This document shows positions 1,876-9,203 of a stretch of 31,606 bases of DNA, piece after piece. Made by a program: the position numbers and the translations under genes. The stretch is from an uncultured Bacilli bacterium (GTDB lineage Bacteria; Bacillota_I; Bacilli_A; RF39; UBA660). Numbering within the stretch: the stretch's first letter is position 1; each line of letters opens with the position of its first letter. Location: positions 1-31,606 of the forward strand of contig CANRGW010000001.1 of assembly GCA_947630205.1 (NCBI GenBank). Reading direction: 5' to 3'. A model generated the notes under the pieces. It did not search any database and was not told the origin of the DNA. It saw nothing but the letters and a program-made list of their open reading frames with translations.

Positions 1876-1910
1876 AAAAAAGAAGAAATTTTGTTATTTT
1901 TCTTCTTTTT
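1876..1910 (-). terminator. Probable intrinsic terminator overlapping the ftsH stop
   Basis: Minus strand AAAAAGAAGAAA...TTTCTTCTTTTTT inverted repeat; weak, GC-poor stem. Confidence 0.5.
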
Positions 1911-3915
1911 CTTCATCTTTTAAATCCGTTGCATCCGTTGGTTCTATATCATTTGCTTCAAGTAATCTAATTAATTCATCCTTACTTAGTTTAGAATATC
2001 CTTTAATATTTTTATCTTTAGCTAAATCTTTTAATTCATCTAAAGTCATATCTTCAAAAGTTGTATCTTCTGGTAATTCTTTATGTTCTACTAAATATTC
2101 GATTTGTTCTTTTGTTAAAGTTTCTCTTTCAAGTAAAGCATTAGCAATTAATTTTACTAAATCAGCATTGGCTTTTAATATTTCGGTTGCTTTTTGATAA
2201 CATTCTCCAACTATTTTTCTTATTTCTTCATCTATTTCATGAGCAACAATATCAGAGAAGTTACGACTCTTATTATAATCACGCCCTAAGAAAACACCTT
2301 CTGATTGATGTTCTAATTGAACTGGTCCTAAATCACTCATACCATATTCTGTAACCATTGCTCTTGCGATTTTGGTTGCTTTTTCAAAGTCATTATGAGC
2401 ACCCGTTGTAATTTCTCCAAAGTTTAACTCTTCCGATACACGACCTCCAAGTAAACCTGTAATTTGCTCCAATAATTCTCTTTTTGTTTGGGTATATTTT
2501 TCTTCTTTTGGAACCATCATAGCATAACCACCAGCATAACTTCTTGGAATGATGGTAACTTTTTGAACAATATTAGCAGAATTTAATTTTAATCCTAAAA
2601 CAACATGTCCAGCCTCATGATATGAAACAAGTCTTTTTTCCATTCTCTTCTCTTCATCTGTATATTTTTTACTCTTTTTAGCAGGTCCCATTAAAACTCT
2701 ATCAGTTGCTTCATCTACTTCACTCATTGTAATAGCATCCTTATTTCTGCGAACAGCTAGTAAAGCCGCTTCATTTAATAAGTTCTCAAGGTCAGCCCCA
2801 GAAAAACCTGGAGTTCTTTTGGCTAAATTACTTAAAGTTACATTTTTATCTAAAATCTTATTACGAGCATGAACTTCTAATATTTCTTCACGAGCCTTTA
2901 CATCTGGTAAATTAACGGTTACTTGACGGTCAAATCTTCCTGGTCTTAATAAAGCAGGATCTAAAACATCTGCTCTATTAGTTGCCGCTATAATGATAAT
3001 TCCTTCATTAGCCCCAAAACCATCCATTTCCGTTAACAATTGATTTAAGGTTTGTTCACGTTCATCATGACCTCCACCTAAACCAGTTCCTCTTTGACGA
3101 CCAACAGCATCAATTTCATCAATGAATATTAAACAAGGAGCATTATGTTTTGCTTGTCTAAACATATCACGAACACGACTAGCACCTACACCAACAAATA
3201 ATTCTACAAAGTCAGAACCACTTATATAATAGAAAGGTACATTTGCTTCCCCAGCAACGGCTCTAGCAAGTAAAGTTTTACCAGTTCCTGGAGGACCTAC
3301 TAATAATACACCCTTAGGAATTCTTGCTCCAAGTTTTTGAAATTTCTTAGGATTTTTCAAAAAATCTATTAATTCTTTTAATTCTTCTTTTTCTTCCTTA
3401 AGTCCTGCTACTTCATTAAATGTAACTTTCTTTTGACTATCATCTAATTTAGCACGACTTTTTCCAAAATCAAACGATTTATTATTACCACCAACTTGTT
3501 TAGAAACAATGAAAAACATTAAGACACCAATAATGATAAGTGGTAAGAAATTTAAAATAACAACAATCCACATACTACCATTTGGATCACCTTTAGTATT
3601 AATTTCAAAATCATATTTTTCATTAGCCGTTGCAATATATTTCATTACTTCTTCTGATAAAGGTACTTGAACATGAAAACTTTCTTTTTCAGAATAATCT
3701 TTTAATTGTCCACTTATATCATATATTCCTTCATCAATACTAGGAACAATTGTTATTTCCTTTACTTCATTATTATTCAAACTAGCAACAAACTTATCAT
3801 ATGTTAATTCATTTACTTTAACATTTAAAACATTAAAAAAGTAAATTACAGCTAGCATTATTACAATTAAAACTACATAAGGTATTATACCTTTTCTTAT
3901 ATCTTTTTTATTCAT
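1894..3915 (-). CDS. ftsH: ATP-dependent zinc metalloprotease FtsH with a C-terminal Rho_N-like extension
   Basis: Two N-terminal TM segments; Walker A GPPGTGKT; Walker B IFIDEID; [13 protein letters not shown]; zinc motif HEAGH. Confidence 0.98.
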
Positions 3916-3927
3916 TAAAATCTCTCC

Positions 3928-5247
3928 TTACAAACATTTAAATATTATATCACATAATTCATGATTTTGACTATCATATTTTGATTTTTTTAATTTAGGT
4001 ATCCAAATAATTTTTCCACTACTATCTACTACTATAGGATAACTATCTCTTTTATCACGACTTAACTTCTTATCAATAAAAATATCACTTACTTTTTTAA
4101 ATTTATTCATTCCTTTTAATTCTATAGCATCTCCTACTTTTTTACTTCTAACATAAAGTGGTAAATCTATATCAGAACTTATTAAATGAATTACATCATT
4201 ACCATTTTCTTTACCGTGATATTCTTGAAAAGTCATTCCATTAGGAAGTTTTAAACCATCTTCTAAAAGATAACAATAATTACTATCTAAATTATTCGAT
4301 TTTTCTAAAAGAAAATAACCATAATCAATTTTTGCTATAATCCCCAAAGGAAGACTTATTTTACTACCACTTTTATTCTTTCTAATAAGATTTAAAAGAA
4401 TATCAATATGTTTACTTTCAACAAAAGATAAATCATCATAAAAATTTAATAATATTTTTTCTAATAACATTTTTTGAAGAAAAATATCTTCTTCTTTAAA
4501 CAAGGAAATATCAAGTTTAGCATCTTGATAAATATTATTATAAGCATTATTTAGAACTTTTTCAATATAATTATCACATTCCGTAAGCATAGCACTAAAT
4601 TTCAAAAACTTTAAATGAACATTCTTATTTTCTTCTTTTAAAAAAGGTAAAACATTATGTCGGTAACGATTTCTTGTATATTTATTGGAAAAATTACTTT
4701 GATCAATTCGATAAGGAATATTATTAGCTTTATTAAAATTTTCTATTTCTTCTTTAGTTACATATAATAAAGGTCTTACAATAAAATAATTATCCATATT
4801 TGTAATTAAAGAAATACCTTTATAGCCACTTAAAGTTGAACCGCGAACTAAACGCATTAAAATAGTTTCAATCAAATCATCGCCGTGATGAGCCGTCATT
4901 AAATAAGCAGCCTGATATTTATTAATTAAATCTTGATAAAACTTATAACGAATTTCTCTTGCTTCTTTATGAAAATTACCTGTTCCATATTTTTCAATCC
5001 GCATACTTTCAAAAGAACAATTATGATTTAAACAGTATTCTTTTAAAAAACTTTCTTCTTCCTTACTTTCTTCTCTTTTTTGATGATTAATATGAGCAAC
5101 TATAATTTTATAGCCTATCTTTTTTTGTAATTCTAAAAGTAGATACAAAAGACACATAGAGTCTGGTCCTGCACTTACACCAACAACTATGCTATCTTCT
5201 TTAGTTAATTTAATTTTATTTTCTAAAAAATCGTATACTAAATCCAT
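3928..5247 (-). CDS. tilS: tRNA(Ile)-lysidine synthase
   Basis: PP-loop SAGPDS, TAHHGDD and RPLL motifs; C-terminal TilS_C; canonical position before ftsH. Confidence 0.96.
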   Translation of the reverse strand: MDLVYDFLENKIKLTKEDSIVVGVSAGPDSMCLLYLLLELQKKIGYKIIVAHINHQKREESKEEESFLKEYCLNHNCSFESMRIEKYGTGNFHKEAREIRYKFYQDLINKYQAAYLMTAHHGDDLIETILMRLVRGSTLSGYKGISLITNMDNYFIVRPLLYVTKEEIENFNKANNIPYRIDQSNFSNKYTRNRYRHNVLPFLKEENKNVHLKFLKFSAMLTECDNYIEKVLNNAYNNIYQDAKLDISLFKEEDIFLQKMLLEKILLNFYDDLSFVESKHIDILLNLIRKNKSGSKISLPLGIIAKIDYGYFLLEKSNNLDSNYCYLLEDGLKLPNGMTFQEYHGKENGNDVIHLISSDIDLPLYVRSKKVGDAIELKGMNKFKKVSDIFIDKKLSRDKRDSYPIVVDSSGKIIWIPKLKKSKYDSQNHELCDIIFKCL

Positions 5248-7790: not shown

Positions 7791-8504
7791 CTAACCTCCA
7801 AATACTTCAGCATTATCGCTCGCTTCAACTTTTACTTTCAAACTATAATATGTCTTGCTATAAACAGGCTTTTTACTAACACATGTAGAACCATCGTCTT
7901 TTCCTTCAGTTGCTGCAGAATCAGCACTAGCACAATAATCTGCATCTGATTCACTATCAGAAATCTTTACGGTATCATTTACCCACATTTGTAATTCGTA
8001 TTCATGAGTAACATTTTGACCTGGTTGAATTGTTGAAGTTGCTAATAGGAAGCCTGTTTCACTAGAACCAGCAATTGCTCCTCCATTAGTATCTTTATAT
8101 GGAGATTCAAGTGTAACTGCGGCTCCAGCTGTTGTTGTAAGATGTAAACTTATATCACCATCTGCCATTCTTGTAAAGCCTTGAGATTCTTTAGATGTAT
8201 CACCCTTAATACCATATACCTTATAAGTAACTGCACCTACAGTTGAAGGAATATTAGCCTTAACAGTAAATTTGAATTTAGAGGCGGTTGCTATAGCACT
8301 CGCAGCATCTTGTGGAAATTGATTTGATAAAGACAATGCTGACTCATTAGAATAAGTAAAATCAACTTTACCTGTTTTAATTACGTTGTTAGTAGTACCA
8401 TTTTTAGCATAACTGAAGAATGCGAAAGATACACTAAATACTGTAACTATTAATAAAACAAGACCTACAATTATAAAGACTGTTTGTTTTGAACGATTTT
8501 TCAA
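7791..8504 (-). CDS. Secreted TasA/camelysin-like protein with a SipW-type signal peptide
   Basis: Basic n-region, hydrophobic h-region, then SFA|FF and N..KTGKVDF (compare TasA WA|AF...SGTLDL); beta-rich Ser/Thr/Ala mature part. TTG at 8504 fits the RBS AGGTG better than GTG at 8513. Confidence 0.6.
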   Translation of the reverse strand: MKNRSKQTVFIIVGLVLLIVTVFSVSFAFFSYAKNGTTNNVIKTGKVDFTYSNESALSLSNQFPQDAASAIATASKFKFTVKANIPSTVGAVTYKVYGIKGDTSKESQGFTRMADGDISLHLTTTAGAAVTLESPYKDTNGGAIAGSSETGFLLATSTIQPGQNVTHEYELQMWVNDTVKISDSESDADYCASADSAATEGKDDGSTCVSKKPVYSKTYYSLKVKVEASDNAEVFGG

Positions 8505-8529
8505 ATTAGTCACCTACCTTATACATAAA

Positions 8530-8594: not shown

Positions 8595-9203
8595 TTAATA
8601 TCCCCATCGTTCGATTTTGAAATTAATATTATATGATCTACCTAAATTTTGTATCTCACTTTCACTATTATAAAGTAAATCCATAGTTAAACCATGAATA
8701 TCACTTCCTCTATCCAAAACTATCCCATAAAAATCACCTGGTTCATGGGAAAAATTGGAAATTTTTACAATACTACCACAAGGAATACTCTCATCAGCCG
8801 CCAAAATACGAATTTTTCCATAAGTATTATCTTCATAATAAATATTACCATTTTGAACATTATGACTTGGATTACATCCAAGATTACCATTACATCCTAC
8901 ACAATCAGGTCCATATCCTGTTAAAGTTCCTTCAAACTCAACTAATTTATTTTCATTTTGTTCTAATTCTGAAATTGAAAAAACTCTTACTATATTTGAT
9001 AAATTACCTTGTAAAGAATTCAAATTAAGATTACTAAAAGACATTAACTTTGAAGACTCAATTGTCTTTATGTTATTAATATTACTAACCACTATATCAT
9101 TAGATGAATTACTATTTGCAACTAAAAATAGCAAAAAAATAACAAAAAACAATCCACCAAAATAGGCTAAAATACGTTTAGTTTGCTTCTTTTTCCATTT
9201 CAA
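8595..9203 (-). CDS. Membrane-anchored 3D-domain protein (YabE/MltA-like cell wall hydrolase family)
   Basis: N-terminal TM helix; C-terminal LTGY...ILAADESIPCGS...LDRGS...MDL carries the three Asp of the 3D domain; lies downstream of tatD, like Bacillus yabE. Confidence 0.82.
   Translation of the reverse strand: MKWKKKQTKRILAYFGGLFFVIFLLFLVANSNSSNDIVVSNINNIKTIESSKLMSFSNLNLNSLQGNLSNIVRVFSISELEQNENKLVEFEGTLTGYGPDCVGCNGNLGCNPSHNVQNGNIYYEDNTYGKIRILAADESIPCGSIVKISNFSHEPGDFYGIVLDRGSDIHGLTMDLLYNSESEIQNLGRSYNINFKIERWGY

Follow-up and report, generated by a model that had tools for sequence, protein, structure and literature searches.

The FtsH protein of this uncultured Bacilli bacterium ends, behind its protease domain, in a small autonomous helix-extended-helix (HeH) domain of the Rho_N/SAP/HeH clan, a module that ribosomal proteins S2 and L20 carry in the same genome. 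The gene lies in the window (the whole stretch of DNA analyzed here, 31,606 nucleotides long), which belongs to a metagenome-assembled genome of 1.15 Mb in 138 contigs with an estimated completeness of 71%. The coordinates of the features are collected in Table 1.

Table 1. Features of ftsH in the window and carriers of the module elsewhere (G000 is the present genome)
Feature	Location	Strand	Basis or remark
ftsH coding sequence, 673 aa plus TAA stop	1894..3915	(-)	ORF and TIGR01241
AAA ATPase domain, residues 203-335	2911..3309	(-)	PF00004, 156.8 bits
Peptidase_M41 protease domain, residues 424-606	2098..2646	(-)	PF01434, 229.8 bits; genome search 2095-2646
Acidic hinge/linker, 16 aa, residues 607-622	2050..2097	(-)	Irregular in the predicted model
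Rho_N/SAP-type helix-extended-helix module, residues 623-653	1957..2049	(-)	PF07498 match from residue 621
Acidic C-terminal tip, 20 aa, residues 654-673	1897..1956	(-)	Disordered, pLDDT < 50; non-conserved
rplT (L20, 179 aa)	G000 contig C13, L001:27-566		C-terminal Rho_N, 38.2 bits
rpsB (S2, 318 aa)	G000 contig C13, L001:649-1605		C-terminal Rho_N, 38.7 bits
Multi-TM carrier of family f16	L143:218-1012, L144:202-1116, L145:142-945	(-), (+), (-)	Genomes G322, G096, G084

The FtsH core protein and its gene context

Judged from its translation, the protein is a complete and apparently active FtsH. Its reading frame is unbroken from end to end, and the TIGR01241 FtsH equivalog (cut-off 600 bits) matches residues 16-605 with 813.7 bits, covering model positions 5-598 of 598; the family model stops at residue 605, in support of the call of an added domain in the first-pass annotation. 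Four Pfam domains were found (FtsH_ext, AAA, AAA_lid_3 and Peptidase_M41). FtsH_ext (PF06480; 37.8 bits against a cut-off of 25.5) is flanked by two hydrophobic stretches (membrane anchor and extracytoplasmic loop), the PF00004 and PF01434 scores lie far over their cut-offs, and Walker A, Walker B and HEAGH (the HEXXH zinc site of M41) are all legible. A genome search found this ftsH as the only Peptidase_M41 gene of the assembly.

The surroundings are those of housekeeping genes (gyrB, gyrA, dnaX, mfd and metG), with tilS immediately upstream of ftsH and a gene for a family-2 glycosyltransferase downstream. The tilS gene (3928-5247) stops 12 bases (3916-3927) ahead of ftsH, and hprT is absent from this gap; the order in B. 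subtilis is tilS-hprT-ftsH. A scan for promoters and terminators around ftsH gave signal no better than chance. Two ORFs of this otherwise housekeeping region are without a Pfam match at E <= 1e-5, namely 7791-8513 (240 aa) and 8595-9203 (202 aa), both on the minus strand.

Identity and predicted fold of the C-terminal module

The Rho_N model (PF07498; gathering cut-off 24.9 bits) matched residues 621-653 with 31.7 bits when the entire protein was scored and with 35.8 bits (E 8e-9) when the isolated 70-aa tail was used, and a six-frame search of the genome returned the same match in ftsH, at 1954-2055, with 35.5 bits. The first-pass annotation had placed a Rho_N-like domain behind the protease domain at 1950-2058 (residues 620-655) and had proposed scoring the tail with PF07498; the placement holds, with a score over the cut-off. 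The tail also reached 21.0 bits on SAP (PF02037; gathering cut-off 23.9) and scored on Ish1, in each case under the cut-off. Going by these profile scores and by the predicted models, the SAP likeness of the module is one of clan-level kinship only.

AlphaFold2 predicted a helix, an extended loop and a second helix for the module in context (81-sequence alignment; pLDDT 75-80), with the tip disordered, and it predicted the 34-aa module by itself (39-sequence alignment) at pLDDT 92, with helices at residues 8-17 and 28-33. The module is thus predicted to be a folded HeH domain and not a disordered extension. With the 134-aa and 34-aa models as queries, Foldseek found nothing in the PDB at E <= 0.001, a consequence of the shortness of the domain. 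The 24 rows returned for the module were nearly all Rho N-termini, FAN1 SAP, S/MAR-binding SAP and Tho1: Rho N-terminal bundles superposed with TM 0.75-0.78 (RMSD about 1 A over 30 residues) and FAN1 SAP domains with TM 0.80-0.82 (RMSD likewise about 1 A), both with non-significant E-values. Comparing the tail with PDB sequences brought up a single weak match, also to a Rho (8hsj, E 0.2). Among the polar positions of the module, conservation is highest at lysines of the loop and of the beginning of helix 2; in the alignment of tails the module is almost neutral overall (median net charge +1) and is flanked by acidic residues on both sides.

Conservation of the tail

The C-terminal 134 aa of the present FtsH retrieved 80 species-level relatives, and all 80 have kept the module. 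In the resulting 81-row alignment the majority residue has a mean frequency of 0.79 at the protease end, 0.64 in the hinge/linker and 0.70 in the module, which is at full occupancy across the 81 tails, and the acidic tip has a frequency of 0.11 and an occupancy of 0.31 (the related genomes compared here being non-independent samples). The linker varies from 10 to 22 aa across the 80 tails (median 13, median net charge -4), and the stretch after the module is 0-20 aa long in these relatives, with a median of 3. The module is under purifying selection family-wide and, because it stays conserved while linker and tip vary across species, it is more than a chance match. The acidic tail that the first-pass annotation had described behind the domain is present, at 20 aa, but it is genus-specific and not a conserved feature.

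Some close FtsH relatives are titled 'uncultured Muribaculaceae' or 'Acidaminococcus fermentans' (L025, L030, L039, L040, L050, L052, L064, L071 and L083); these titles look like mistakes of binning or labeling, since the architecture of the proteins is of the same Bacilli/Mollicutes type.

PF07498 annotation is precomputed on 120 of the 120 best database relatives, the sole named one of which is annotated merely as FtsH, and a literature search found no paper on a Rho-N, SAP or HeH tail in FtsH. Since databases annotate the domain automatically and we found no paper, the fusion is catalogued but not characterized, and the earlier suggestion that it was undescribed stands for the literature but not for the databases.

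The same module on ribosomal proteins S2 and L20

A search of the present genome with Rho_N returned three matches: FtsH, L20 and S2. The genes rplT and rpsB adjoin one another (contig C13, outside the window), and in both products the module occupies the extreme C-terminus, after a Lys/Glu-rich linker. All 24 family relatives searched have a Rho_N match, and in near-complete genomes of the genus the count is exactly three, the frames being of L20, S2 and FtsH size. The RNA-binding domain of Rho (PF07497) was found in none of these 24 relatives, nor in the present genome; with three Rho_N matches and Rho undetected, the tags are the lineage's only Rho_N modules. Rho was found in just two genomes, both of other families (G027 and G028). 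Rho is missing from some small AT-rich genomes (PMC11347177), which agrees with a lineage in which it was undetected. In the present FtsH the module comes after a protease and PF07497 does not come after the module, and the protein is not a Rho. A leftover of a decayed rho gene was considered as the origin of the module and ruled out, as the module is in frame at the end of FtsH in 80 species and PF07497 was not found in the 25 family genomes searched.

A multi-domain ribosomal protein S1 was not found in the present genome or in 18 genomes of the same genus, where S1-domain matches are single and the frames that hold them measure about 715 aa and about 130 aa; in the same class, several other families do possess a multi-domain S1. 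S2 is the normal docking site of S1, and the lack of a multi-domain S1 might have to do with the S2 tail. Strict complementarity does not hold, given that one genome (G036) has an S2 tail plus a multi-domain S1.

Age and distribution of the fusions

We compared the FtsH, S2 and L20 modules from 14 genomes. Modules on the same carrier are 75-80% identical in different genomes, modules on different carriers are 51-60% identical within one genome versus 51-62% between genomes, and each carrier's module has its own signature. The modules therefore group by carrier and not by genome, so that the fusions predate the radiation of the family and have not been homogenized; a recent copy from S2 or L20 is ruled out as the origin of the FtsH module on the same ground. 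In one genome of another family (G030, family f7; loci L122 and L123) the modules of S2 and L20 share about 90% identity (28/31 residues), compared with about 60% for the same pair in family f1, which hints, from these sequences, at copying from one gene to the other there.

A survey with the protease end plus the module as query gave a match through the module in 30 of the 36 family-f1 genomes sampled (about 29 genera). In the other six FtsH ends in a charged low-complexity tail; all six match Rho_N in a frame of S2 size, and four of them in one of L20 size as well. Beyond f1, only G030 and one genome of family f16 (G322) showed a true FtsH module, and none was found in other members of the class or in a 250-genome sample taken at phylum rank. 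The survey by taxon proposed at first pass thus gives a fusion that is lineage-wide and rare outside f1. Apparent FtsH extensions past the protease domain in five further genomes (G245, G153, G111, G103 and G199) were rejected as low-complexity charged tails in which the module is absent.

Every genome seen with the FtsH tail also has Rho_N tails on frames of ribosomal-protein size. The distribution is nested, the ribosomal tails being the broader and older ones; the FtsH tail occurs only where they exist and can be lost. In the six f1 genomes it was lost or never gained, and because it is missing from these 6 of 36 genomes and from nearly all other families of the class, it is not essential.

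Other carriers of the module

In other genomes, S2 with the module was found in G025, G039 and G040, and L20 with the module in G027 and G029. Two further carriers lie in G026, at L084 (C1:129000-132000, minus strand) and L085 (C1:269800-272600): a sigma-70-like protein with apparently two tandem N-terminal Rho_N modules, and an unidentified 673-aa protein with one C-terminal module. Three genomes of family f16 have a second membrane carrier, a multi-TM protein of 265-305 aa that belongs to no known family and has several N-terminal TM helices followed by a linker and a C-terminal module (27.8-30.6 bits); the same query did not find this protein in the present genome (assembly 71% complete).

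A profile of the module matched 10,223 representative clusters at E <= 0.001, frequently in tandem copies. Among the top 116 relatives Rho_N was matched in 116, SAP in 73 and HeH in 23, and the occasional fused partners in this set are mostly nucleic-acid enzymes and domains (HMG boxes, helicases, HNH and the MCM winged helix).

A possible role of the FtsH tag

FtsH is, to our knowledge, a universal membrane-bound quality-control protease, and the way in which it finds the sites where its substrates arise is still poorly understood. It is a hexamer, and its C-terminus exits the protease ring opposite the AAA entry pore, on the membrane-distal side (as in crystal structures such as 3KDS). A hexameric architecture implies six copies of the module per particle, and a membrane-distal C-terminus with a linker of 10-22 aa suggests that the six tags hang beneath the hexamer, away from the entry pore.

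We infer, tentatively and with somewhat less than even confidence, that six RNA-binding tags, tethered at the membrane-distal face of the hexamer, hold FtsH close to ribosomes or mRNA. Each hexamer would show six tags to the cytoplasm, on the membrane-distal side of the protease ring; the tags would show little sequence preference in the nucleic acid that they bind, which would most likely be RNA (rRNA of the ribosome or mRNA of polysomes), and the ligand would be common to the FtsH tag and the tails of S2 and L20. Multivalent weak binding could then hold the protease beside membrane-associated translating ribosomes, and FtsH would become concentrated where membrane-protein and stalled-translation substrates arise, as opposed to being fed directly through its pore. 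We count in favor of such an RNA tether the Rho_N identity of the module, its HeH fold and conservation, its sharing with S2 and L20, the failure to find Rho in the family genomes searched, the nested distribution, the precedent of RHON1 (discussed below), the conserved lysines and the f16 carrier. We count against it the near-neutral charge of the module, its acidic flanks, the dispensability of the FtsH tail, the non-significant E-values of the structure matches and the fact that Rho contacts RNA chiefly through its OB fold and less through its helix bundle.

The ligand of the FtsH tag could equally be DNA or protein. If the module behaved as a SAP/LEM-like binder of AT-rich double-stranded DNA, the tags would hold the nucleoid, or transcribing/translating loci, at the membrane, which we regard as unlikely. 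The tail does score on SAP and Ish1, its best superpositions include the DNA-contacting FAN1 SAP domains and the S/MAR-binding 1h1j, its relatives match SAP (73/116) and HeH (23/116) and have HMG, helicase, HNH and MCM winged-helix partners, and both the sigma-70-like protein of G026, with its two N-terminal copies, and the second membrane carrier of f16 would suit a DNA ligand. The tail nevertheless falls under the SAP cut-off and over that of Rho_N, the carriers that go back furthest and range most widely are ribosomal proteins, which would more naturally bind RNA, and the only isolated Rho-N motif assayed in the literature that we found (that of RHON1) bound RNA.

A protein ligand appears distinctly unlikely. 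The tag would then be a docking site, either for a protein partner shared by the carriers or for the S2 and L20 tails themselves, with which the FtsH tail would pair; HeH-HeH or HeH-partner contacts would then bring ribosomes to FtsH. The tag is common to three unrelated carriers, the FtsH tail is found only in genomes that also have the ribosomal tails, and HeH-clan members such as LEM bind proteins, all of which would fit; however, each carrier has its own signature, and because the modules of different carriers are equally alike within genomes (51-60%) and between them (51-62%), there is no sign of within-genome co-evolution.

We likewise give little credence to the tag as a dispensable passenger, that is, a promiscuous small domain spreading among the highly expressed proteins of reduced AT-rich genomes with at most a generic benefit to solubility or stability. 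The module family is indeed huge, promiscuous and often in tandem (the 10,223 clusters above), and 6 of 36 sampled f1 genomes replace the FtsH copy with an ordinary charged low-complexity tail; against this, the conservation of the module comes near that of the protease end over 81 species as its flanks drift, modules of the same carrier remain 75-80% identical across genera, and a true FtsH module recurs in families f7 and f16. Recruitment of substrates or adaptors, the second idea of the first-pass annotation, in which the tags would catch RNA- or DNA-bound proteins or nascent chains and pass them to the protease, is very improbable: six tags would give avidity and the C-terminal region of E. 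coli FtsH is implicated in the recognition of some substrates, but direct recruitment is made less attractive by a C-terminus that exits opposite the AAA pore, and a linker of 10-22 aa is short for reaching the entry side.

A wider reading would make the HeH tags on S2, L20, FtsH and the f16 multi-TM protein one lineage-specific tethering system, in which a common ligand couples ribosomes or mRNA to the membrane and the protease. The set occurs in reduced genomes where neither Rho nor a multi-domain S1 was found. We consider this wider reading a long shot; if true, it would give bacteria a counterpart to the HeH/LEM proteins that serve as membrane tethers at the nuclear envelope of eukaryotes.

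Six folded tags per hexamer, of a nucleic-acid-binding type common to two ribosomal proteins, would be a simple way of placing a protease beside translating ribosomes, in a host group of large extent that consists of uncultured gut bacteria with small genomes, with Rho undetected in the genomes searched. If the tag has no measurable effect, it is one more variable FtsH tail.

Comparison with known systems

Canonical FtsH (TIGR01241; E. coli, B. subtilis, Thermotoga and Thermus) has in common with the present protein two TM helices, the FtsH_ext loop, AAA, lid and M41 with HEAGH, as well as a housekeeping setting just downstream of tilS; the family model covers nothing beyond this core, and in the present protein a linker leads on from it to a folded Rho_N/HeH domain. 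Across the class, FtsH proteins mostly show a disordered charged tail in place of linker and module. The added domain has counterparts in the S2 and L20 tails of the same lineage, which have the same module (51-60% identical to the FtsH copy), likewise C-terminal and on a flexible charged linker. They differ in that their linkers are longer and Lys/Glu-rich and the module is at the extreme C-terminus, whereas the linker of the FtsH copy is short and acidic and its module bears a separate signature, and they are phyletically broader than the FtsH copy.

The N-terminal bundle of Rho (PF07498; 1a8v, 2a8v and 1pv4) resembles the module both in sequence, with a match over the gathering score, and in predicted fold. 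In Rho, however, Rho_N precedes an OB fold and an ATPase, and the FtsH module is terminal and followed by neither. The Rho helix bundle is reported to be positively charged and to help RNA loading (PMC11347177). RHON1 of the Arabidopsis chloroplast is an unrelated protein that terminates, as FtsH does, in a Rho-N motif of roughly 40 aa preceded by acidic residues, and its last 40 aa (the C-terminal Rho-N motif) alone bind RNA in gel shifts, including fragments of 16S and 23S rRNA (PMC3458557). RHON1 is a eukaryotic organellar partner of RNase E and not a protease, and it is likened to FtsH here by description.

The SAP/HeH/LEM domains (Pfam clan CL0306; 1h1j, Tho1 4uzw and FAN1 SAP 4rea) have the same two-helix fold as the FtsH module (TM up to 0.82); they are eukaryotic and mostly bind DNA or BAF. 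The HeH/LEM proteins of the inner nuclear membrane are membrane-anchored and tether chromatin, and they offer a functional analogy to the tag on FtsH.
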